This document shows positions 12,979 through 33,630 of a DNA stretch of 64,000 bases, in pieces. Position 1 is the stretch's first letter; each line of letters starts with the position of its first letter. Under the pieces are notes generated by a model. It saw nothing but the letters and a program-made list of their open reading frames with translations, was not told the DNA's origin and searched no databases. This DNA comes from a virus (taxonomy: Duplodnaviria > Caudoviricetes), in the IMG/VR virus record IMGVR_UViG_3300032138_000524, positions 32,001-96,000 of that record, one strand, 5' to 3'. The translations under genes were made by a program, and so were the position numbers.

Positions 12979-13409
12979 TGAAAACTCAACTACTCTGCAC
13001 ATTCACTAAACGAAATAGACTCTACGATACAATAGGGCTAATCATTGAATGCCACGATATAGTTTTCAATAAGATTTATGTATTTGCAAATGAAGATGAC
13101 CATCATCAGTTAATTTGTACTTACAACATTCCACAAAACCAAGATAATTTCATAGAGGGTATTGATACGATAGCATTACATCGAAAGAAACAGACCAACA
13201 CACTTTATACCATTAATTCATTAAATGAAATCATTAGAGAAAAGAATCAAGGAGTTTTAGATAAAACATTTCCCGTTCCTTGGGAAGAATATCAAAATAC
13301 TTTGTTATTAGTAAATGATGAAGGATTAAATCAAATCCATACACGAATTTATACTATCGTAAATGTAGATACTTGGGAGAATGACCAAAAATTAAGAGAT
13401 GAATTATAG
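12978..13409 (+). CDS. Conserved hypothetical phage protein
   Basis: MKTQLLCTF...HRKKQTNTLYTINSLN; start overlaps the previous stop (TAATG). Confidence 0.65.
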   Translation: MKTQLLCTFTKRNRLYDTIGLIIECHDIVFNKIYVFANEDDHHQLICTYNIPQNQDNFIEGIDTIALHRKKQTNTLYTINSLNEIIREKNQGVLDKTFPVPWEEYQNTLLLVNDEGLNQIHTRIYTIVNVDTWENDQKLRDEL

Positions 13410-14235
13410 GTTTTACTATCCAGAATGGAATAATCGTAAAGAAGTCTGTAAAGACTACCCACAAATAAAAGAAATAACACGAGAACCAACAGCTTTTTGG
13501 TATGGAGTTGGGCCAAAGAGAACCATCCGAAAAACCAAAAAATCAATCCAAAGACTATTAAAACGGGCAGACCCGTATTTACCTATATTAGTTGTATATT
13601 CAATTCCATACAGAGATTTAGGACATCATTCAAAAGGTGGTGCAGAAAGTGATAAAGAGTATTTAAAGTTTATTAGTGAATTCTGTGACGCAATAGGTGA
13701 TAGAAGTCCTATTGTGATATACGAACCAGATTGTATTCCACATATGGAAGATATGGGAGTGGTAGATGGATTAAAACGATTATCTTTGATAAAGAAATCA
13801 GTTGAAATGTTGAGTAGGACAAATTCGTTGGTTTATCTTGATATCGGACATCCAACATGGTTATCAGTCCCAAAAGCTGTCTCATATCTAAGAATGTGTG
13901 ATATACACAAAGTTAGGGGGTTTAGTATCAATACAAGTAACTATTATGCTACAACTACCTGTTATAAGTATGGAAAGACTATAAGTAAGAGATTAGATGG
14001 TAAACATTTCGTAATCGACACGTCAAGAAATGGTAATGGAGCTAATAAAGAACATTTTAATCCATATGGAAGGTCAGTTGGACAGTATCCAACTACTCAA
14101 ACTTGTGATGATATAGTAGATGCATACCTTTGGATTAAAATACCAGGTGAAAGTGATGGAAAAGTGAATGGAGGACCTAAAGCAGGTCGTTTTTCACACA
14201 ATTTAGCGTTAGATTTGATACATAATCGGAAATAG
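13399..14235 (+). CDS. Glycoside hydrolase family 6 (endoglucanase-like)
   Basis: YSIPYRD..HSKGGA, IYEPD, YLDIGHPTWL, RGFSINTSNY, HFVIDTSRNGNG, YLWIKIPGESDG. Confidence 0.88.
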   Translation: MNYRFYYPEWNNRKEVCKDYPQIKEITREPTAFWYGVGPKRTIRKTKKSIQRLLKRADPYLPILVVYSIPYRDLGHHSKGGAESDKEYLKFISEFCDAIGDRSPIVIYEPDCIPHMEDMGVVDGLKRLSLIKKSVEMLSRTNSLVYLDIGHPTWLSVPKAVSYLRMCDIHKVRGFSINTSNYYATTTCYKYGKTISKRLDGKHFVIDTSRNGNGANKEHFNPYGRSVGQYPTTQTCDDIVDAYLWIKIPGESDGKVNGGPKAGRFSHNLALDLIHNRK

Positions 14236-15879: not shown

Positions 15880-16128
15880 ATGTTAAACATAAAAAACGAA
15901 ATCAGAAAATTAGATAGTCTTTCAGAGTTGAATGAACTATCAGCATTTATCAATGATTGTAAAGTGATGTTAGGTAGAATGTCATTTTCTGTTGGGGATA
16001 AAGTTTATGTAGTCCAAAAGACTAAGAAAACCGAAGGTAGGATTACTAAAGTCAACAAAGTTAAATGTGTTGTTGATATGAGAGGTCGGTTATACAATGT
16101 TCCAATGTCAATGTTGGAGATGAGGTAA
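15880..16128 (+). CDS. Small protein with SH3/KOW-like C-terminal barrel
   Basis: FSVGDKVYV...GRITKVNKVKCVVD...YNVPMSML. Confidence 0.6.
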   Translation: MLNIKNEIRKLDSLSELNELSAFINDCKVMLGRMSFSVGDKVYVVQKTKKTEGRITKVNKVKCVVDMRGRLYNVPMSMLEMR

Positions 16129-16145
16129 AAAAGTCAAAAAAAGCC

Positions 16146-16174
16146 TTGACTTTTACAAATTTTATTCGTAAGAT
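16146..16174 (+). promoter_or_regulatory. sigma70-type early promoter 3 (no CDS follows)
   Basis: TTGACT-N17-TAAGAT. Confidence 0.75.
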
Positions 16175-16179
16175 CAATA

Positions 16180-16434
16180 GTAATGAGAGAGATATGGAAA
16201 TACTAAAAATACTTGTTTAACCCCGTTTGATTAGGTTCATATAAAAGTGTCTAAGGGGAGTTTAAGACACACGAGAGAAAAAAAAATTCGTGGTTTCGTC
16301 CTTTCTACGATAATTTGAAAGGGTGGTGGGTTTGAGAGTGACTACCTATTTGGAACTCTCAAAAATTTTGGGGAATAGATAGTTAGACTATACCGCTGGA
16401 CTCGTTTGAGGACTCTGGATTCCCCAATTTTTTT
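16180..16434 (+). ncRNA. Candidate multi-hairpin ncRNA
   Basis: Serial stems GTGTCT/AGACAC, CACGAG/TTCGTG, CCTTTC/GAAAGG, TTTGAGAGT/ACTCTCAAA and TTGGGGAAT/ATTCCCCAA followed by T7; lies downstream of promoter 3. Confidence 0.5.
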
Positions 16435-16482
16435 AGCTATAAAAGATAGTGTTTGAGAAATTTATGAGATATATATATTAAA

Positions 16483-16547
16483 TGGTGGTGAGGTTTTTTT
16501 ACATATACCCGATAATTTTTAATTATCTAAAACTCACCACTTTTTTT
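16483..16547 (+). ncRNA. Candidate small hairpin RNA
   Basis: GTGGTGAG/CTCACCAC stem with inner GATAATT/AATTATC, followed by T7; preceded by a TTTGAGAAATTT...TATATAT motif. Confidence 0.4.
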
Positions 16548-16624
16548 AAAAAAAGCGAAGAAAAAAGACGTTTTGAGAAATTTGGAGTATATATATAATA
16601 TACGATTAAAATTAAAGAATTAAA

Positions 16625-16788
16625 TTTTGTGGGTCGGAGTTGTAAGATTACCATACGAGAAGAGAAAGACGGTTTTATCCCGTCTTAAATGGTTGACCGA
16701 ATTCCAGTATAAAAAAAGTTGGAGTGGTTTTCTTGTTTCCATTTGACAAAAAGAACAATACCTCTTATGACATGATTTACCTACAAAA
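16625..16788 (+). ncRNA. Y-RNA-like RNA 1
   Basis: TTTTGTGGGT/ACCTACAAAA stem, CGGA/ATGATTT internal loop, GTTGTAAGA/TCTTATGAC stem; adjacent to the Ro60 gene. Confidence 0.65.
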
Positions 16789-16799
16789 AATATTAAAAT

Positions 16800-16869
16800 T
16801 TCGGGTCGGAGTTGATGGATTATCATTATACCAGACAATAAAGACTCCATTAGCAATAATTTATCCGAA
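16800..16869 (+). ncRNA. Y-RNA-like RNA 2
   Basis: TTCGGGT/ATCCGAA stem, CGGA/AATAATTT loop, GTTGATGGA/TCCATTAGC stem; shares GGGTCGGAGTTG with RNA 1. Confidence 0.6.
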
Positions 16870-16910
16870 TAATATTAAAAATTGAATAATTAAAAAAGGA
16901 GACTTATTAA

Positions 16911-18518
16911 ATGAGCTACCAAGCATATACAACATACAACACAAAAGTTACACCACAATCAGAACCAATTCCAGGTTCTAATCAAGTTCCAAATTCCGCA
17001 GGTGGACATTCTTTTGAAGTTGATATATGGACTCGTTTAAATAGATTTCTTATTTTAGGAACTGAAGGTGGAACATATTATATCCGCCAAAAACAATTAA
17101 CAAAAGAGAACGCCAAGTCAATAAAAAAGTGTATTCTGTTAGATGGAAAACGAGTAGTAGATACCGTTATCAATATTTCAGATACAGGTCGTGCAGTTAA
17201 AAACGATCCAGCACTATTTGTTCTTGCAATGTGTGCAGGACTTGGTGATGATTTTACTCGTAAATACGCCTTAACCAATCTACCAAAAATAGCAAGAATT
17301 GGAACTCATTTGTTTCATTTCGCTGGTTATGTAGAACAGTTTAGAGGTTGGGGTCGTGGACTACGAAAAGCTATCGCAAATTGGTATCTGTTAAAAGAAA
17401 CTGATAAGTTAGCATATCAATCTGTAAAGTATCAACAAAGAGATGGTTGGTCACATAAAGACCTATTGAGATTATCTCATCCATCTACACAAGATGCCAA
17501 TAAAGATTTACTATTTGAGTGGGTTACAAAAGGATATAATTCTTCAAAGGAAGATGAATATAAGGATTCACTCAGTATAATTTGGGCCTTCGAGAAGGTC
17601 AAGTCAGTCCAGACAGATGTGGAAGCTGCTAAATTAGTGGAAGAATATAAACTCCCACTTGAGGCAGTTCCTTCTAACCTAAAGACACCTAAAGTTCTGG
17701 AAACAGCATTACCACATTTGGGATTGACAGCTATTATCAGAAACTTAGGTAACTATACCAAACACGGTATTCTCACTCCCCAAAGTGACGCCCTTAAACT
17801 CGTTACTTCGAGAATAACCGATAAGGGGAAATTGCAGAAGGCCCGTATTCATCCATTAAGTGTATTACAGGCAATGCAAACCTATAAGAGTGGTAAAGGA
17901 CTCAAAGGTTCTGGTGAGTGGGAAGTAAACCCACAAATAGTAGATGCTCTTGATGACGCATTCTACTTGTCTTTCGATAATATAATTCCAACTGGTAAAC
18001 GAGTGATGTTATCACTTGATGTATCTTCATCCATGACTTGGGAAGGTTGTGGTGGAATGCCATCAGTAACACCACGAGTTGGTTCAGCTGCAATGGCAAT
18101 GGTTACAATGAGAACTGAAAGTGATTATCTTATAACAGGTTTTACAACTGGATTAGAGATTCTTGATCTTTCTCCGAAAATGAGATTGGATGATGTATGT
18201 GATAGATTGGAAAATCTTGATTTTGGTGGAACTGATTGTTCATTACCAATGTTATACGCACTTGAGAATGACCTCCAGTTTGACGCCTTCGTAGTTTATA
18301 CAGATAGTGAAACTTGGGCAGGTGAAATGCATCCAGTTGAAGCGTTAAAGATGTATAGAAAGAAAACAGGAATTCCAGCAAAACTAATTGTAGTGGGAAT
18401 GGAAGCAAATGATTTTACAATAGCAGATCCAGATGACTCTGGTATGTTAGATATAGTAGGTTTTGATACGACAGCACCTTCCGTGATGTCCGATTTTATC
18501 AGAGAAGATTTACAGTAA
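16911..18518 (+). CDS. rsr: Ro60/TROVE-domain RNA-binding protein (Rsr ortholog)
   Basis: RLNRFLILGTEGGTYY, RGWGRGLRKA, KYQQRDGWSHKDLLRLSHP; vWA MIDAS DVSSSM, GGTDCSLPM, YTDSETW, DIVGFD. Confidence 0.93.
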   Translation: MSYQAYTTYNTKVTPQSEPIPGSNQVPNSAGGHSFEVDIWTRLNRFLILGTEGGTYYIRQKQLTKENAKSIKKCILLDGKRVVDTVINISDTGRAVKNDPALFVLAMCAGLGDDFTRKYALTNLPKIARIGTHLFHFAGYVEQFRGWGRGLRKAIANWYLLKETDKLAYQSVKYQQRDGWSHKDLLRLSHPSTQDANKDLLFEWVTKGYNSSKEDEYKDSLSIIWAFEKVKSVQTDVEAAKLVEEYKLPLEAVPSNLKTPKVLETALPHLGLTAIIRNLGNYTKHGILTPQSDALKLVTSRITDKGKLQKARIHPLSVLQAMQTYKSGKGLKGSGEWEVNPQIVDALDDAFYLSFDNIIPTGKRVMLSLDVSSSMTWEGCGGMPSVTPRVGSAAMAMVTMRTESDYLITGFTTGLEILDLSPKMRLDDVCDRLENLDFGGTDCSLPMLYALENDLQFDAFVVYTDSETWAGEMHPVEALKMYRKKTGIPAKLIVVGMEANDFTIADPDDSGMLDIVGFDTTAPSVMSDFIREDLQ

Positions 18519-18542
18519 CAAATAAGTAACAAAGGAAAAACA

Positions 18543-18758
18543 ATGAACACAGGTACAGTAAAGTGGTTCGACGCTAAAAAAGGATATGGTTTTATATCTG
18601 ATACGGCGACGGATGGCTCAAAAGACTATTTTGTCCATTTCTCCGAAATTCAAACAGACGGCTTTAAGACTTTAGCAGAAGGTCAAAAAGTTGAATTTGA
18701 AATTGGAGAAGGTACAAAAGGTGCTGTTGCGAAGAATGTTAAATCAGCAACAGAATAA
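18543..18758 (+). CDS. cspA: Cold-shock protein
   Basis: [15 protein letters not shown]...[22 protein letters not shown]. Confidence 0.93.
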
Positions 18759-18778
18759 ATTAAATTTAGCATAAAAAG

Positions 18779-18810
18779 TTGGGTTGTTTTTGTAACAACC
18801 CAATATTTAT
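18779..18810 (+). terminator. Hairpin, probable terminator
   Basis: Perfect 10-bp stem TTGGGTTGTT/AACAACCCAA followed by a T-rich tail. Confidence 0.55.
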
Positions 18811-18881
18811 TATTGTCAACGGTTATACCAATGACAATTAACTAATAACAAATAAAAATAATAATAATAAGGAGATAACAA

Positions 18882-25129: not shown

Positions 25130-27115
25130 ATGGAAAAGTTTCAGTTATCGGAAAATTTTATAAATAAGTATAAAAGAAAAAAACCCCCGTTTGGTTTTAA
25201 TGGTTTAGGTGAATTAGTGTATATGAGAACCTATTCTCGTATTAAAGAAAACGGTAAAAATGAAAGATGGTGGGAAACGGTTAAGAGGGTTGTAGAAGGA
25301 ACTTATTCTATGCAAAAGAATTGGATTGATTCTCATCAACTCGGATGGAATCCTTGGCAAGCTCAAGCATCAGCTCAAGAAATGTACGAAAGAATGTTTA
25401 ATATGAAGTTCTTACCACCTGGCCGTGGACTTTGGGCAATGGGAACTGCTATAACAGAAGAAAAGAATCTTTATGCTGCCCTTAATAATTGTGCATTCGT
25501 ATCTACTAAAACACTTAAAGAAGATTACTCAAAACCATTTTGTTTCTTAATGGACGCATCTATGTTAGGTGTAGGAGTTGGTTTTGATACAAAGGGTGCT
25601 GGTGAGATAGTAATAAAGGGAGTTAATACTGATAGAGGAGAAGAAGTATTTAAGATACCTGATACGAGAGAAGGTTGGGTAGAATCATTAAAGTTATTGT
25701 TAGAGAGTTATTTTCATGGAACTGCACCAGTATATTTTGATTACAGAAAGATTAGACCAGCGGGAGCACCAATTAAAGGTTTTGGTGGTGTTTCAAGTGG
25801 TCATGAACCATTAGAAGAAATTCATGATGAAATTAGAAAAGTATTAGAACAAAATAGTAAAGAACCAATTACAGTTACTACAATTGTGGACATAATGAAC
25901 CTTATTGGTAAATGTGTCGTAGCAGGGAACGTAAGACGAACAGCGGAGATTGTGTTCGGTGATCCATTTGATGAGGAGTATTTGGATTTAAAGAATTATC
26001 AAGTCAATCCACATAGAGAACAATATGGTTGGACTTCCAATAATTCAATATATGCAGAACTCGGTATGGATTATACAGAGGTATGTAAGAGGATTAACGA
26101 TAATGGAGAACCTGGATTCGCATGGTTAAAGAATATGAGAAAATTTTCTCGTATGCAAAATGGTGGAGATAATAAAGACCATAGAGTTGCAGGTGGAAAT
26201 CCTTGTTTAGAACAATCATTAGAAAGTTATGAATTATGTTGTTTAGTAGAAACATTTCCGTATAACCATGAAGATTTAGAGGACTATAAAAGGACACTTA
26301 AATATGCTTATCTGTATGCCAAAACGGTAACACTTGGTAAAACTCATTGGAGTGAAACCAATAGAGTTATGTTAAGAAATAGACGAATTGGATGTTCAGT
26401 AAGTGGTGTCGCACAATTTATTACAAAACACGGAATGGATAATTTAAGAAAGTGGTTAGAGAAAGGATATGATACAATACAAGATTGGGATTGTACTTAT
26501 TCTGATTGGTTCGCGGTTCCAAAGTCAATTAAAACCACAAGTGTAAAACCAAGTGGTACGGTTTCACTTTTAGTAGGAGCAACTCCTGGAATGCACTATC
26601 CAGAGTCAAGATTCTACATAAGACGAATGAGGTTGTCAAAACATTCAGAGTTAATAGAACCACTAAGAAAAGCAGGTTACAAATTAGAACCAGCCTTCGG
26701 TTCAGAAGATTCAACGATGGTAGTAGAGGTGCCGGTAGATGTCGGGGAGGGTATTAGAACTGCGGCTGAACTTTCGATTTGGGAACAATTCAGTTTAGCC
26801 GCGTTCTTACAACGACATTGGGCAGATAACCAAGTAAGTTGTACAGCAACATTTGACCCTGAAACAGAGTCCGACCAATTACCACACGTTTTAAATTATT
26901 TTCAATATAGATTAAAAGGTATATCGTTATTACCAAGACATCCATTAGGAGCTTACAAACAAATGCCCTATGAAGCAATTACAGAACAAGATTATGAAAA
27001 ACAAGTTAAAAAACTTGGTTATTTAAGTTTTGTAGGCGTTGAAGGTGAAGAAGCAGAAATAGATAAATTTTGTAACAATGATGTTTGTGATATACCAGAT
27101 ATACCAGAAGCATGA
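25130..27115 (+). CDS. nrdJ: Class II (adenosylcobalamin-dependent) ribonucleotide reductase, monomeric RTPR type
   Basis: FLPPGRGLW, LNNCAF, VAGNVRRTAE, GNPCLEQ, TTSVKPSGTVS; C-terminal CNNDVC. Confidence 0.92.
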   Translation: MEKFQLSENFINKYKRKKPPFGFNGLGELVYMRTYSRIKENGKNERWWETVKRVVEGTYSMQKNWIDSHQLGWNPWQAQASAQEMYERMFNMKFLPPGRGLWAMGTAITEEKNLYAALNNCAFVSTKTLKEDYSKPFCFLMDASMLGVGVGFDTKGAGEIVIKGVNTDRGEEVFKIPDTREGWVESLKLLLESYFHGTAPVYFDYRKIRPAGAPIKGFGGVSSGHEPLEEIHDEIRKVLEQNSKEPITVTTIVDIMNLIGKCVVAGNVRRTAEIVFGDPFDEEYLDLKNYQVNPHREQYGWTSNNSIYAELGMDYTEVCKRINDNGEPGFAWLKNMRKFSRMQNGGDNKDHRVAGGNPCLEQSLESYELCCLVETFPYNHEDLEDYKRTLKYAYLYAKTVTLGKTHWSETNRVMLRNRRIGCSVSGVAQFITKHGMDNLRKWLEKGYDTIQDWDCTYSDWFAVPKSIKTTSVKPSGTVSLLVGATPGMHYPESRFYIRRMRLSKHSELIEPLRKAGYKLEPAFGSEDSTMVVEVPVDVGEGIRTAAELSIWEQFSLAAFLQRHWADNQVSCTATFDPETESDQLPHVLNYFQYRLKGISLLPRHPLGAYKQMPYEAITEQDYEKQVKKLGYLSFVGVEGEEAEIDKFCNNDVCDIPDIPEA

Positions 27116-27199: not shown

Positions 27200-30019
27200 A
27201 TGAATAAACGTAATCTAATCTCATCGGTAATGACCATTCTAATGCCTATGTTCCTTTTCGGACAAGCAGTAATTGAAGAAAAGGTAGAGACAAGCATTGG
27301 TGGTGTAGTTTCTGATGAGTCAAACAATCCAATAGTTGGAGCCAATGTGATTGTAGAAGGAACTGATTTAGGTTCAGCTGCAGATGCAGATGGATACTAC
27401 TCTATTGATTTAGGGGCAGGTTCTTATTCACTTACAGCTTCCGCAATTGGATATGAATCTCAATCGTCTGAGGTGTCAATAAAAGAAGGTGATTCAGGAA
27501 TTACCAACTTTGTATTGGTCATATCAGCAATTGAGATGTCGGCATTAGAAGTTTTAGCTTCTCGTGCAGGCGAAAAGACACCTGTTGCACATACAACGGT
27601 AGAAAAAGCAGAAATTGAATTTCGTCTTGGTTCACAAGACTTACCAATGTCTCTTAATCTAACACCAAGTGTATATGCAACTCAACAAGGTGGTGGTGCG
27701 GGTGATGCTCGTATCAATGTTCGTGGTTTTAATCAACGGAATGTGGCGGTAATGATTAACGGAGTCCCACAAAATGATATGGAAAACGGTTGGGTCTATT
27801 GGTCTAACTGGGACGGTGTAGCAGACGCTGCACATTCTATCCAGATGCAACGTGGACTCTCCGCAGTCAATTTAGCTACCCCTTCCATTGGTGGAACTAT
27901 GAACATCATAACTGATCCTACTGCTCACGAAAAGGGTGGTAAGTTCAAACAAGAAAGTGGCGCAGGTGGTTTTCTAAAAACCACTCTGAATTATAATAGT
28001 GGTCTTATAGGTGATAAATTCGCCTTGAGTGGTACTATTGTAAGAAAAACAGGTGATGGTGTCATAGACAAAACATGGACAGACGCTTGGGCATATTACT
28101 TTGGTGCAAGTTACGCACTAAACGCTGATAACCGATTCGAATTATACGCAATCGGTGCTCCACAACGACATGGACATAATTTATACAAACAGAATCTTGG
28201 TGCATACGATGCCGATTTTGCTGCGAGTGTAGATGGATATGATACTGAAGCACTTGGTGAAGATGGTAAGTTCAAGGATGTCGGTAGGTTCTTTAATCAG
28301 AACTGGTCACCAGTTGATCCGTCATATACAGGTAAACAATACTATTATATGTATGGAGCTAAAACTGTTGATAGACACGATCCTAACTTCATTAATGAAA
28401 GAGAAAATTTCTTTCATAAACCATTAGTAAACCTTAACCATTATTTAACTATCGATGACAAAACAAGACTGAGTTCAGTTCTGTATTGGAGTGGTGGTTC
28501 AGGTGGTGGAACTGGTACTTATGGTAGGATTCCTACAACGGATGCTGATGGAGTTACGGGTCTGGAGGATTATAAGTTCTATTATGGTCGTAGTCCTTGG
28601 ACACGTGATTGGAATGCTCTTATCGCTATGAATAGTGGTGATGATGATACAGTATATGTAGACAAAAGAGTTCTTCCAAGAACACACGGTGAAGGTAATA
28701 ACCAATCTGTAGGTATTTTGAGGAATAGTATTAATCGTCAGAATACACTTGGTCTTATTTCTAAACTTAACTATGATTTTAGTGATGAACTTAAATTACA
28801 AGTTGGTATAGATTGGAGAACAGCAGGTATCGAACACGCACGTGAAGTTCGTGATTTGATGGGTGGAGATTATTATTTGGATTTTGCAGATGATAACGCA
28901 CCAGATGGTAAAAGAGTTGAGTTAGGTGATATAATCGCTTATCACAATGAAACTACCGTTGATTGGTTAGGTGGATTCTTACAGGGTTCATATTCTTCAG
29001 GACCACTTTCCGCATATGGTATGGGTGGAGTATCAAGCATAGCTTATACTTACCAAGACCATTTCACAGTTGCTGATGAAGTAATATCTGCAGACGCTAT
29101 TATTACTACTCAGTTCAAAGGTGGAGCAATGTATGATGTTACTGAAGGACTTAGTGTTTTCGGTAACTTTGGTATAGTAGAAAAACCGCCCATTATGGAT
29201 AATGTGATTTATTTTGATGGAACGGTTGCTTCAGATCCCGCAAACGAAAGATTCGTCAGTTCAGAAGCTGGTGTAAACTATTCGTCAGGGATTGGAGCAG
29301 TTAAAGTATCTGCTTATAGTACAGATTGGAAAGACAGAAACCTTACCAAATCTGTAACAAGCGGACAAGGTTCAAGTGGTGATACTGATGTTATATTCCT
29401 AAGTGGAATAAATCAGAAACACCAAGGTGTTGAAATTGAAGCTTCCACACAAGTACTTGATTTACTTAGCTTAGGTGCTATAGTAAGTCTTGGAAATTGG
29501 AAGTTCGATGGTGATGCCGATGGAAATTATCAAGAAGATGAGTTTAACGAAGATGGTCAAGTCATTGGACAAACGACTACTCCGTATTCTTACGCACTTG
29601 ATGGTTTGTTTGTTGGTGATATGCCTCAAACATCTTACGCACTTGTTGGAACTCTAACTCCCATAAAGGGATTACAGTTACAGGCAGTATACAATCAGTA
29701 TGATAACAATTATTCTGATTGGAGTCCTGGAGCAAGAGAGTATGATGGTTCAGATGCAGACGCAGACAGAGAACAAGTATGGAAAGCACCTGGATATTCC
29801 AAAGTGGATCTCCACGCTTCCTATAAACTACCGATTGGTGGATATGATGCATCTTTATTCGCTCATGTATTTAACGCGACAGACGCAGTATTTGTTCAAG
29901 ATGCGGTAGATCACAGTCAATACAATAGTTACGGTGATAAAACACACGCAGCTCACAACGCAGAAGTATTTCTTGGAACTCCAAGATATTTCAATGTTGG
30001 TATTGCAGTTAGTTTCTAA
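27200..30019 (+). CDS. TonB-dependent outer-membrane receptor with CarboxypepD_reg-like N-terminal domain
   Basis: Signal peptide; PIVGANVIVEGT..G..AD.DGYYSI; plug RINVRGF...INGVP; C-terminal PRYFNVGIAVSF. Confidence 0.9.
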   Translation: MNKRNLISSVMTILMPMFLFGQAVIEEKVETSIGGVVSDESNNPIVGANVIVEGTDLGSAADADGYYSIDLGAGSYSLTASAIGYESQSSEVSIKEGDSGITNFVLVISAIEMSALEVLASRAGEKTPVAHTTVEKAEIEFRLGSQDLPMSLNLTPSVYATQQGGGAGDARINVRGFNQRNVAVMINGVPQNDMENGWVYWSNWDGVADAAHSIQMQRGLSAVNLATPSIGGTMNIITDPTAHEKGGKFKQESGAGGFLKTTLNYNSGLIGDKFALSGTIVRKTGDGVIDKTWTDAWAYYFGASYALNADNRFELYAIGAPQRHGHNLYKQNLGAYDADFAASVDGYDTEALGEDGKFKDVGRFFNQNWSPVDPSYTGKQYYYMYGAKTVDRHDPNFINERENFFHKPLVNLNHYLTIDDKTRLSSVLYWSGGSGGGTGTYGRIPTTDADGVTGLEDYKFYYGRSPWTRDWNALIAMNSGDDDTVYVDKRVLPRTHGEGNNQSVGILRNSINRQNTLGLISKLNYDFSDELKLQVGIDWRTAGIEHAREVRDLMGGDYYLDFADDNAPDGKRVELGDIIAYHNETTVDWLGGFLQGSYSSGPLSAYGMGGVSSIAYTYQDHFTVADEVISADAIITTQFKGGAMYDVTEGLSVFGNFGIVEKPPIMDNVIYFDGTVASDPANERFVSSEAGVNYSSGIGAVKVSAYSTDWKDRNLTKSVTSGQGSSGDTDVIFLSGINQKHQGVEIEASTQVLDLLSLGAIVSLGNWKFDGDADGNYQEDEFNEDGQVIGQTTTPYSYALDGLFVGDMPQTSYALVGTLTPIKGLQLQAVYNQYDNNYSDWSPGAREYDGSDADADREQVWKAPGYSKVDLHASYKLPIGGYDASLFAHVFNATDAVFVQDAVDHSQYNSYGDKTHAAHNAEVFLGTPRYFNVGIAVSF

Positions 30020-31098: not shown

Positions 31099-33630
31099 TT
31101 GTATCAAAACGTTTATTACGAAAGTCGTAAAAACAAAGTACATATATGGGATGATAAAAGTGGTCATGTAGTTGTGCCTTATAAAAGGTATGCTTATGTG
31201 AAAGATAATTATGGAACTCATGTATCTTTGTATGGTGACAGATTAAAGAAAGTATATAAGTGGGAAAAAGGTCTTAAAGGATTACACGAAAGTGATATAA
31301 ATCCTGAAACACGAACTCTCATTGATATGTATACCAATAGTGAAGAACCATCAACTGGTCATAAAATTATGATTATTGATATTGAGGTAGAAGTTACAGA
31401 AGGATTTCCAAGTCCACAAAAGGCACCAAATAAGATTACTTCTATTGCCATTCACGATAGTGTAACCGACCATTATTGGTGTTTTGTTCTTGATGAACAA
31501 AGTAAACTCCAACGGTCTGATTGGGGTAAAAATGTAACTGTAGAAACTTTTGATAAAGAGTTTGGGTTATTACAGAGGTTTTACGCAAAGTATTTAGAAA
31601 TACGACCAACTATTATAACTGGTTGGAATGTAGATGGTTTTGATATTCCGTATCTTTACAATCGTTCACAACAGATAGTTGGTAAGAATATTGCTGATTG
31701 TCTTTCACCAATTTCAAAAGTATTTTATAATAAATACAGAGAAAAATATATGATAGCAGGGGTGAGTTGTTTAGACTACCTTATGTTATACAAGAATTTT
31801 ACTTTTAGTTCTAAACCATCTTACAGATTAGATGAGATTGGTAAGAGTGAAGTTGGAACATCCAAAATATCATACGAGGGAACTTTAAATGATTTATATG
31901 AAAACCACTTGGAAGATTTTGTTAAGTATAATATTCACGATGTTAGGATAGTAAAGAAATTAGACGACAAGTTAGATTTTATTGATGTAGCTCGTGGTAT
32001 TTGTCATGTAGGGCATGTTCCGTATGAGGACATTGTGTATGATTCTCGGTTCTTGGAAGGTGCAATATTAGTATATATGAAAAAACTTGGAGTTGTAGCA
32101 CCTAATAAAACACCACGAGAAGATGTAAAGAAAGATAAGAAATTTGCAGGAGCATATGTTCAGGATCCACAAAAAGGTAGACACGATTGGGTGTATGATT
32201 TAGATATTACATCTATGTATCCGTCAATTATTATGAGTTTGAATGTATCTCCTGAAATGAAGATTGGTAAAGTTGTTGGTTGGAATCCAGAAGAATTTAT
32301 TAGAGGTAAGAATAAGACTTATTCTATTCAAATGAATGGAAAGAAGAAAGGACAATTTACTGAAACAGAGTTGAAAGATTTCTTTGATAAAAATCAAGTA
32401 TCTATATCCAATAATGGTATTTTATATAGAACTGATAAACAAGGATTAATACCAACATTATTATCAGAATGGTTTGATAAACGAAAAGAGTTTAGAAAGT
32501 TAGCAAAAAAGTTTGGTGATGAGGGTGATGAAGAAAAATATGGTTATTTTAATAGACGACAACATATTCAGAAGATTGTGTTGAACTCTATGTATGGAGT
32601 ATTGGGTTTACCAGTATTTAGGTTCTATGACTTGGATAATGCAGAAGCAACTACATTAACAGGTCAATCTCTTATTAAGTTCACACGAAAACTTGTTAAT
32701 CACTTTTATAACAAGGAATTAGGAACGGAAAAAGACTATTGTATTTATATTGATACTGATTCAGTATTTTATTCTGCAGTACCATTAATTGAACATAGGT
32801 TTAAGGGTGAAATGAGTGATGTAATGATGACTCAAAGAATTAATGAGGTTGCAACAGAAGTTCAAGGATTTTTAAATGAAACCTATGATTATTTTGCACA
32901 GAAATTCTGTAATTTGAATAAACATCGTTTTGAGATTAAACAAGAAATTGTAGCAAAGAGTGGGTTATTTATAGTAAAGAAACGATATGGTATGAAGGTC
33001 ATTTCAGATAATGGTGTTCAAGTGAACAAAACGATGGTTAAAGGATTAGATACAGTTCGTAGTAATTTTGCACCACTATTCAGACAATTATTAGCTGATG
33101 TATTAGATGATATTTTAGGAAGTGTTCCAAAGGACAAGATAGACCACAGAATAACAAGATTTAAAAAGAATATGAAACTTAATCAACTCGATGAAATCTC
33201 ATCTCCGACTGGAGTTAAGGGGATATGGAAATATTTGAGAAAAGATAATGAACATACTTCAGATTTACTTGAAAAACAAAAAGATAGACGAGTATTTTCT
33301 TTATTCCATAAAGGAACACCAGTTCATGTAAAGGCAGCAATTGCATACAATGACTTGGTTAGGTATTTTGGCCAAGATAACAAATATGGGTTTATAAATA
33401 ATGGGGATAAAATTCGTTGGGTGTATCTGAAAAATAATCCATTGGGGTTAAAGGTCGTGGCATATAAAGGACATGAAGATCCACCAGAAATTATGAAATA
33501 TATAGATGAACATATAGACCACGATAAAATTTATGACCAAGCAATGACCAAAAAATTACAAATGTTTTATGATTGTTTGGATTGGGGAAAACCAGTAGAT
33601 GAAGAACAAAGTATAGAAAGATTTTTTTGA
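31099..33630 (+). CDS. Family B DNA polymerase (gp43-like)
   Basis: Exo DIEV and GWNVDGFDIPY; DLDITSMYPS; KIVLNSMYG; YIDTDS; KKRY; TTG start after AAGAGG. Confidence 0.93.
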   Translation: MYQNVYYESRKNKVHIWDDKSGHVVVPYKRYAYVKDNYGTHVSLYGDRLKKVYKWEKGLKGLHESDINPETRTLIDMYTNSEEPSTGHKIMIIDIEVEVTEGFPSPQKAPNKITSIAIHDSVTDHYWCFVLDEQSKLQRSDWGKNVTVETFDKEFGLLQRFYAKYLEIRPTIITGWNVDGFDIPYLYNRSQQIVGKNIADCLSPISKVFYNKYREKYMIAGVSCLDYLMLYKNFTFSSKPSYRLDEIGKSEVGTSKISYEGTLNDLYENHLEDFVKYNIHDVRIVKKLDDKLDFIDVARGICHVGHVPYEDIVYDSRFLEGAILVYMKKLGVVAPNKTPREDVKKDKKFAGAYVQDPQKGRHDWVYDLDITSMYPSIIMSLNVSPEMKIGKVVGWNPEEFIRGKNKTYSIQMNGKKKGQFTETELKDFFDKNQVSISNNGILYRTDKQGLIPTLLSEWFDKRKEFRKLAKKFGDEGDEEKYGYFNRRQHIQKIVLNSMYGVLGLPVFRFYDLDNAEATTLTGQSLIKFTRKLVNHFYNKELGTEKDYCIYIDTDSVFYSAVPLIEHRFKGEMSDVMMTQRINEVATEVQGFLNETYDYFAQKFCNLNKHRFEIKQEIVAKSGLFIVKKRYGMKVISDNGVQVNKTMVKGLDTVRSNFAPLFRQLLADVLDDILGSVPKDKIDHRITRFKKNMKLNQLDEISSPTGVKGIWKYLRKDNEHTSDLLEKQKDRRVFSLFHKGTPVHVKAAIAYNDLVRYFGQDNKYGFINNGDKIRWVYLKNNPLGLKVVAYKGHEDPPEIMKYIDEHIDHDKIYDQAMTKKLQMFYDCLDWGKPVDEEQSIERFF

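Follow-up and report, generated by a model that had tools for sequence, protein, structure and literature searches.

Y RNAs encoded beside phage Ro60 genes have been reported since 2014, in 22 phages (PMC4201824). In Mycobacterium smegmatis YrlA and YrlB are Rsr-bound RNAs that derive from one precursor (PMC4201824). Tandem pairs of Y RNAs preceding phage Ro60 genes have also been published, for mycobacteriophages in 2014 (PMC4201824) and for the Thermus phage phiLo in 2025 (PMC12135203). The Ro60 protein of phiLo binds its two upstream Yrl RNAs, and ternary complexes with the host PNPase have been described (PMC12135203; PDB 9KOP, 9L5Y). A review of jumbo phages lists a TROVE protein with a tRNA-like partner (PMC7824862). 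Phage Ro60 genes are common: 367 GenBank phage records gave matches, mostly from actinophages. Here we describe two RNA elements, A and B, which precede the Ro60 gene of an uncultured marine phage in a 64-kb stretch of DNA (positions 32,001 to 96,000 of IMG/VR record IMGVR_UViG_3300032138_000524), called the window below. The complete record is 132 kb long, has a CheckV completeness of 63% and a low GC content (~33%). We consider it likely that A (16625-16788) and B (16799-16870) are two Yrl-family Y RNA genes heading a phage unit with Ro60 and, in most relatives, a cold-shock protein, that both RNAs bind Ro60 through their stem, and that the core of A recruits a partner.

The earlier note on this DNA had drawn attention to a 12-mer repeated upstream of Ro60 and to a stem/internal loop/stem fold common to both copies. 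The 64 kb contain exactly two copies of the 12-mer GGGTCGGAGTTG, one at 16631 and the other at 16803 and both on the + strand; allowing one mismatch added no further copy, and none of 100 shuffled sequences contained two or more. RNAfold recovers both folds. The parts of the two elements, with stems and internal loops read from the sequence, are as follows.

16625..16788, + strand: element A, long Y RNA (match to covariance model R2, fold, conservation in relatives)
16625-16634 TTTTGTGGGT / 16779-16788 ACCTACAAAA, + strand: lower stem of A, 10 bp
16639-16647 GTTGTAAGA / 16763-16771 TCTTATGAC, + strand: upper stem of A
Between the stems of A, + strand: internal loop, CGGA opposite ATGATTT
16633-16639, + strand: motif GUCGGAG of A, with UUACC at 16648-16652
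16648-16762, + strand: apical domain of A, 115 nt
16799..16870, + strand: element B, short Y RNA, a YrlB-like hairpin (matches to models R1, R2 and RF01656, covariation in the clade)
16800-16806 TTCGGGT / 16863-16869 ATCCGAA, + strand: lower stem of B
16811-16819 GTTGATGGA / 16846-16854 TCCATTAGC, + strand: upper stem of B
Between the stems of B, + strand: internal loop, CGGA opposite AATAATTT
16805-16811, + strand: motif GUCGGAG of B, with UUAUC at 16820-16824
Between the upper-stem strands 16811-16819 and 16846-16854, + strand: apical loop of B, 26 nt

Compared with shuffled sequences, the RNAfold z-score of B was -2.7 and that of the whole of A -1.6. The compensatory changes which the note had read between the copies were confirmed: three upper-stem pairs (U-A to A-U, A-U to U-A and A-U to G-C) and two lower-stem pairs differ on both sides between A and B and are still paired. 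The distance from the first nucleotide of the element to the Ro60 ATG is 286 nt for A and 112 nt for B, and both elements are on the Ro60 strand.

The family to which the elements belong was characterized with units from other loci. The 1.3 kb preceding Ro60 genes were scanned with the pattern G-N-C-G-R, followed 7-13 nt later by (G/T)TT(A/C)YC, which marked 121 units in 38 other viral Ro60 loci (1-6 per locus). A covariance model, R1, is based on 23 short units, all from phages that do not belong to the window's clade; RNAalifold folded these units into a lower and an upper stem of 8 bp each, with compensatory changes in 11 of the 16 pairs. In the 64-kb window R1 had a single match, which identified B as a short hairpin Y RNA of the YrlB/Yrn2 type (16799-16870, +; 38.3 bits, E 9e-6; E-values of R1 and R2 are rough, as the calibration was shortened). 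The whole 132-kb record also yielded one match only. Over 87 viral loci R1 gave 148 matches, every one of them on the Ro60 strand and almost all immediately 5′ of the gene. In the alignment of the 148 units 94.3% of the pair cells were standard; shuffles had 66% and slid controls 30-44%. Covariation was seen at all 16 pairs.

R1 did not match A even with the filters off, probably because A exceeds the maximum hit length of that model. A second model, R2, which tolerates long apical insertions, was rebuilt from the 148 R1 matches. R2 aligned A across the whole model at 16627-16786 (32.1 bits, E 2.9e-6 in 821 nt), treating the 115 nt as an insertion at the apex, and scored B at 50.2 bits; B is one of the 148 seed rows, and the score of A is not strictly independent of its paralogue. 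In bacteria R2 found 53 units in 23 of 24 contigs, including Mycobacterium and Nocardia; 51 of the units were on the rsr strand and most lay within 700 nt upstream, which is the arrangement published for yrlA-yrlB-rsr (PMC4201824). Both elements thus have the end-closing stem with internal loop of a Y RNA (by their folds; R2 aligns both over the whole model, R1 aligns B), and both lie within 2 kb of Ro60 on the same strand. Judged by sequence and synteny, A and B are Y RNAs of the bacterial and phage Yrl family tied to Ro60. The earlier note had proposed just this, Y RNAs immediately upstream of an intact phage Ro60 gene and on its strand, and had suggested a covariance model from related phages as a check; R1 matching B and R2 matching both elements bear it out.

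R2 can be used as a family model: it detects one to eight units next to most Ro60 genes of viruses and many of bacteria. In the viral loci (L021-L060 and L086-L150) the units form arrays of 1-8 members (eight in L089, seven in L107), mostly 100-1300 nt upstream of Ro60. In L106, L113, L115, L117 and L146 they are located downstream of the gene instead.

The hairpins could also be structured spacers of a general kind, for example sites of RNase processing, attenuators or stabilisers of the mRNA, that have nothing to do with Ro60 binding and whose likeness to Y RNAs is accidental. Other structured RNAs do crowd the 780 nt without genes that precede Ro60, and the whole-A fold is weakly better than chance (z = -1.6). 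This explanation is highly improbable given that two independent models, R1 and Rfam RF01656, match B, that position and strand of the family are strictly linked to Ro60 in 87 viral and 24 bacterial loci, and that a 20-mer from the core of A was found in Ro60-bearing contigs only.

The two elements had been described as non-canonical representatives of a new Y RNA class, with GUCGGAG as a variant Ro-binding site. This part of the note did not stand. GUCGGAG differs from the bacterial GNCGAAG at one position and qualifies as a Ro60-contact motif, the animal form of which is GGUCCGA. Among the 121 other viral units the commonest 5′ motif is GCCGGAG (39 units), followed by GCCGGAT (16) and the textbook GCCGAAG (14), and GTCGGAG itself recurs in two units, in L025 and L031. 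CGGAG is the commonest form of the motif, models from other phages' units match both elements, and the stems of A and B are, by sequence comparison, ordinary family members.

In the window the U of GUC pairs with a 3′ A, which gives UUUAUCC instead of CUUGNCC. The family alignment has C-G at this pair in 136 rows and U-A in nine. Two low-GC viral Ro60 loci, L147 and L150, encode short Y RNAs (L147:2340-2395, L150:2323-2385) with a GGGUCG / UUUAUC(C/U) variant like that of the window; the L147 RNA carries GGGTCGTAGTTGATGATTATC, and odd T-arm-like hairpins (GGGTAGATGCGAATCCC) lie just upstream. These RNAs suggest that there is a subfamily of low GC content with U-A in place of C-G at this pair of the Ro motif.

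Element B also resembles an animal RNA. The Rfam model RF01656 (nematode stem-bulge RNA, sbRNA; ceN72-3_ceN74-2) matched B at 16797-16870 with 32.1 bits (E 1.7e-4), below the gathering score of 38. At the level of sequence this is a resemblance, not membership. The vertebrate Y_RNA model had no match. Nematode sbRNAs and vertebrate Y RNAs are eukaryotic and are transcribed by RNA polymerase III. RF01656 exceeded its gathering score on four phage units, with 40.6-43 bits (L026:2410-2483, L026:2755-2878, L033:2219-2292 and L054:2431-2502). The sbRNA consensus agrees near block-for-block with the phage and bacterial stem module: it has GG-N-CCGGAG, an upper stem of 9-10 bp, the shared GGNCCGGAG, GGUUAUC at the start of the loop, and 3′ CA..ACUUGNCC (CA..ACUUG-N-CC). 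The sbRNAs are homologues of Y RNAs (for reviews of both, see PMC4726728 and PMC4450293). Binding of sbRNAs to ROP-1, the Ro60 orthologue of the worm, was not found, and sbRNAs are active in assays of DNA replication (PMC4726728). UUAUC was reported to be functionally important in sbRNAs and in vertebrate Y RNAs, and the same 2015 review regarded bacterial Y RNAs as not homologous to the vertebrate ones (PMC4726728). In the literature, covered incompletely, UUAUC in conjunction with 'Y RNA' turned up for eukaryotic systems only. The near identity of the phage/bacterial and sbRNA consensus sequences, UUAUC included, bears on this question and suggests real homology of bacterial/phage and animal Y RNAs, contrary to the 2015 review.

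Conservation was assessed in a clade set of 20 IMG/VR contigs, whose Ro60 protein is 89-98% identical to that of the window, and 15 metagenome contigs. The metagenome contigs, which have the same Ro60 gene and carry the same upstream elements, were recovered using the relative P0010. Both elements were present upstream of Ro60, at equal distances, in every close relative with enough upstream sequence, and all stem substitutions across the relatives preserve pairing. In the upper stem of B five of the nine pairs are variable and each variant is a standard pair; one of them is G-C in most contigs, G-U in L153 and L165, and A-U in L004, L008, L014, L163 and L164. In the upper stem of A two pairs vary, on one side. 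Conservation and covariation upstream of homologous Ro60 genes, which the note had named as a test of its proposal, were thus observed. A protein search revealed further Ro60 relatives with 79% (P0010) and 64% (P0011) identity. Scans for contigs of intermediate relatives, in viral sequences with P0010 and P0011, in metagenomes with P0010 and in genomes with the window's Ro60, led to the same clade or to sequences of at most 58% identity.

Two small open reading frames overlap the elements (16724-16885, + strand; 16620-16856, - strand). Both were rejected as genes: in relatives their frames are broken by a 1-nt indel in a T-run and by indels that are not multiples of three, which indicates that the A/B region is not coding.

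Between B and the Ro60 Shine-Dalgarno sequence, at 16876-16892 of the window, there is an 8-nt unit, AATTGAAT, whose copy number varies among the relatives. L012 has about four copies, and contigs from RNA libraries have 8-nt insertions at 16879 and 16892.

The position of B raises the possibility that it acts mainly in cis, as a leader or operator: Ro60 would attach to the 5′ untranslated region of its own mRNA and repress the translation or alter the decay of this mRNA. B ends 25 nt before the Shine-Dalgarno sequence, the scan found no terminator-like site between them, and RNA-library contigs continue from B into Ro60. Moreover, in L026, L033 and L054, which are high-GC loci of actinophage type, the 3′ strand of the lower stem of the last unit contains the Ro60 Shine-Dalgarno (CCGGAGG, 6-9 nt, ATG). 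In the window, however, the Shine-Dalgarno lies outside the stem of B, and the length of the spacer between them varies by the 8-nt repeat, which argues against a precise operator geometry. Loci contain one to eight copies of the family fold, at sites remote from the start codon and even beyond the Ro60 gene, and M. smegmatis YrlB, located at the same position, is a stable Rsr-bound RNA cut from a precursor (PMC4201824). A predominant operator role is therefore unlikely; it could coexist with a role as Y RNA. The Shine-Dalgarno-containing stems of the three actinophage-type loci are at L026:2895-3003, L033:2907-3003 and L054:2872-3003, where folding or Ro60 binding could gate translation.

The apical domain of A consists of two parts that differ in their conservation.

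16666..16686, + strand: variable hairpin AAGACGG / 7-nt loop / CCGTCTT
16687..16762, + strand: A-rich core, 76 nt, near-invariant, clade-specific, not tRNA-like

In the relatives the loop of the hairpin has 7 or 10 nt and a variable sequence, and L002, L009 and L161 have a compensatory C-G to U-A change in the stem. The core is under selective constraint: it is identical at 74-76 of 76 nt (97-100%) in 10 relatives, in which third codon positions of Ro60 are 83-90% and first and second positions 95-97% identical. The adjacent hairpin and element B vary freely across the relatives, so the constraint on the core is local. In IMG/VR a 20-mer of the core was found in Ro60-bearing contigs only. Homologues or targets of the apical domain were searched for with blastn-short and nhmmer in ~100 other Ro60 loci and in the rest of the window, and nothing above chance was found. 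The apical domain does not fold better than shuffled sequences (z = -0.6), and the constraint on the core therefore appears to act on its sequence. No covariation was seen in the core, which hardly varies. The core is A-rich and probably largely single-stranded.

In the studied systems PNPase is contacted by a tRNA-like module. Such a module was not found in A or B. The YrlA features (T-arm with UUCRANY loop, D-arm, connecting stem) were absent from both. The Rfam models RF02553 (YrlA), RF00005 (tRNA) and vertebrate Y_RNA did not match the region 16100-17000 at E up to 10, and over the window no Rfam model reached its gathering score. ARAGORN detected no tRNA in the window, and 16600-16900 did not contain a T-loop motif. 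The Y_RNA and YrlA searches proposed in the earlier note therefore came back empty, and its statement that there is no tRNA-like T-loop held. In the other viral loci a T-loop motif is present in 54 of the 121 units (~45%), and 33 of 38 loci have at least one such unit; on several viral units RF02553 gave sub-threshold scores of 29-42 bits. Several tRNA-like readings of A were considered: the hairpin 16666-16686 as T-arm, AAAA/AGUUGGAGUGG/UUUU as D-arm, and the UUCCAUU loop. They were rejected: the loops are length-variable or improperly closed, and no model supports them.

That neither RNA is tRNA-like makes the locus an exception to the published rule (Chen et al., PMC4201824). It is conceivable, though doubtful, that the tRNA-like effector module has been replaced here by the invariant, weakly structured A-rich 76-nt module (16687-16762), which would tether Ro60 to a different partner and constitute a second kind of Ro60 adaptor RNA. 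The partner of such a module may be another host RNase, a single-strand RNA-binding factor or a complementary RNA. The constrained core offers a concrete bait for pull-down experiments.

The near-invariance of the core could also reflect a signal in the DNA, for example an internal promoter (TTGACA at 16743-16748, 17 nt, TATGAC) that would drive B and Ro60 without A. The core does contain a perfect -35 hexamer at 17-nt spacing from TATGAC, its conservation lies in sequence and not in covarying pairs, and the apical domain is not predicted to fold better than expected by chance. A promoter, however, would constrain about 12-30 nt, not 76. In L163 the hexamer is TTAACA, and the consensus scan did not list the site, as its second hexamer lacks the final T. 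Such matches are, furthermore, common in AT-rich DNA: the scanned region had 19 promoter-type consensus matches, with 10.8 expected. Bacteroidota promoters follow another consensus, which also counts against an internal promoter of this type if the host belongs to that phylum. We regard the promoter explanation of the core as quite improbable.

Signals for transcription were sought by consensus scans.

16573..16601, + strand: promoter-like site TTGAGA-N17-TAATAT, directly after the T-run of the upstream terminator (consensus scan)
18778..18813, + strand: terminator-like hairpin (18778-18804 in the scan) with T-rich tail; the same hairpin follows cspA in L001 and L014

The promoter-like motif has two occurrences in the window; a near-copy of the site lies at 16453-16476. 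All nine relatives whose sequence reaches far enough keep the site upstream of A. The scan listed just two terminator-like sites on the + strand downstream of this site: a weak one inside the Ro60 coding sequence (18000-18018) and the one at 18778-18804 after cspA. Assembled contigs from marine RNA libraries (four studies) bridge A and B (16661-16815) and B and Ro60 (16758-16913, 16787-16915 and 16844-16981), and one adapter-flanked insert spans 16640-17032; being assemblies, they are blind to RNA ends, strand and level, and DNA carry-over is possible. The contigs are weak support for a precursor extending through both RNAs into Ro60. In some RNA-library runs there are gaps in cover upstream of A; these were not used as evidence. 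As judged from the conserved promoter-like site before A and the only non-coding + strand terminator-like site after cspA, A, B, Ro60 and cspA probably form one transcription unit, in agreement with the co-transcription proposed in the note.

The 780-nt gene-free stretch upstream of Ro60 holds other promoter-to-terminator units at 16129-16620; the promoter-like near-copy at 16453-16476 is followed by a long hairpin terminator (~16483-16547). Among the relatives the gap between the upstream open reading frame and Ro60 ranges from ~0.8 to 2.7 kb.

The genes that follow the two RNAs were examined by Pfam and structure-protein comparisons.

16896..16901, + strand: Ro60 Shine-Dalgarno AAGGAG, 25 nt beyond the end of B and outside its stem (from the sequence)
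16911..18518, + strand: Ro60/Rsr orthologue, 535 aa (Pfam, full-length structure-protein matches)
18543..18758, + strand: CspA-type cold-shock protein, 71 aa (Pfam CSD PF00313, 1.7e-27, residues 3-67)

The Ro60 protein has the TROVE (PF05731, 3.8e-36) and vWA_Ro60 (PF25045, 3.2e-65) domains, and its sequence contains the DxSxS MIDAS motif as LDVSSSM. It matches, over the full length, Deinococcus radiodurans Rsr (2NVO, E 8.8e-132), Xenopus Ro60 (1YVP, E 2.8e-123) and 9NEN. By these comparisons it is a full-length canonical orthologue, and the domain matches agree with the earlier description of an intact Ro60/TROVE gene with cspA next to it. Recent capture of the gene from a host was considered and rejected: the best cellular Ro60 is 53% identical (a Brocadia metagenome-assembled genome), and among the genome contigs searched there was no Bacteroidota match.

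The order of genes 3′ of cspA is gp32, RecA-family recombinase and 5′-3′ exonuclease. The Ro60 cassette heads a block of replication and nucleotide-metabolism genes, comprising gp32, the RecA-family recombinase, a DnaB-like helicase, a class II ribonucleotide reductase and a family B DNA polymerase. cspA follows Ro60 in most close relatives and is missing in L007, L012 and L013, where gp32 directly follows Ro60; tblastn did not find cspA in the distant Ro60 loci then examined. The cold-shock gene is an optional passenger of the unit and not a fixed partner. RtcB or another RNA ligase was not found in the 132-kb record (63% complete), and there is no rtcBA repair operon beside Ro60. Nothing therefore points to RNA repair, which had been among the proposed functions.

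Three other genes of the window were noted. A SusC-like TonB-dependent receptor of 939 aa, an unusual auxiliary gene, is encoded at 27200-30019 and combines a carboxypeptidase-regulatory-like with a Plug domain; this combination is a hint of a Bacteroidota host, in keeping with the 33% GC. The early/replication region contains an open reading frame matching glycoside hydrolase family 6 at 13399-14235 (E 5e-46) and the class II (B12-dependent) ribonucleotide reductase at 25130-27115.

The following sequence of events is likely. The conserved promoter-like site at 16573-16601 would drive a single precursor, from which host RNases would excise both stem-closed RNAs, as described for yrlA-yrlB-rsr of M. 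smegmatis. Each RNA would bind the Ro60 ring by its terminal module: the lower stem, GUCGGAG facing the 3′ A/U-rich loop, the 9-bp upper stem and UUAYC. B would be a plain hairpin Y RNA, and A would display its 115-nt apical domain with the variable hairpin and the near-invariant 76-nt core. The core would most likely recruit a partner, by analogy with Deinococcus, Salmonella and phiLo a host 3′-5′ exoribonuclease such as PNPase. With an effector module that lacks tRNA-like features, however, A may have a partner other than PNPase. In this way the phage would assemble its own Ro60 ribonucleoprotein (RNP), which may handle or degrade structured RNA during infection. Breakdown of host RNA feeding nucleotide pools would be compatible with the position of the cassette, a suggestion that is speculative.

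Several of the results weigh against this scheme. They are the missing tRNA-like module, the random-like fold of the apical domain of A and the lack of covariation in its core, the dependence of the R2 score of A on B, the match of B to a eukaryotic model below its gathering score, the limits of the RNA-library contigs, and the failure to find RtcB or an RNA ligase.

The locus can be compared with three described systems. In yrlA-yrlB-rsr of M. smegmatis and the mycobacteriophages (PMC4201824), as here, Ro60 is immediately preceded, on its own strand, by a long Y RNA followed by a short one, a terminal stem closes the RNA, and the motif is GNCGAAN0-1G, from which the window is one substitution away; R2 recognizes this stem module 5′ of rsr in contigs of Mycobacterium and Nocardia. 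In contrast to that system, the long RNA of the window has no T-arm/D-arm module (RF02553 does not match), the fifth position of its motif is G and not A (G being the majority in phage units), and its carrier is a low-GC (~33%) marine phage, not an actinophage.

With phiLo the window shares a phage Ro60 preceded immediately by two Y RNA-like genes (Yrl1 and Yrl2 in phiLo) of the stem/bulge/stem type; the published model is that host PNPase is co-opted. The phiLo Ro60 is remote from that of the window (E 1.4e-8, partial match), whereas the D. radiodurans and Xenopus proteins match over their full length with E 1e-123 or better. The phiLo RNAs were picked by CGAA and the window has CGGA. Binding was measured for phiLo; the window is known from sequence.

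Rsr-Yrn1-PNPase of D. radiodurans (RYPER) and Rsr-YrlA-PNPase of Salmonella resemble the window by a close Ro60 orthologue (2NVO) and by the division of labour in which the stem binds Ro60 and the distal domain recruits the effector. Their effector-binding domain is tRNA-like, whereas that of the window is clade-specific and A-rich, with no tRNA features detected; rtcBA is absent beside the window's Ro60 and from the 132-kb record.

In summary, the window is a new lineage for the known Ro60/Y RNA module, with a long RNA whose effector domain differs, and not a new class. To the known phage carriers of the module, which are actinophages, a Thermus phage and a few jumbo phages, it adds an uncultured marine phage of low GC content, whose cassette recurs in marine metagenomes and is covered by marine RNA-library contigs. 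The basic picture of Ro60 RNPs is unchanged.

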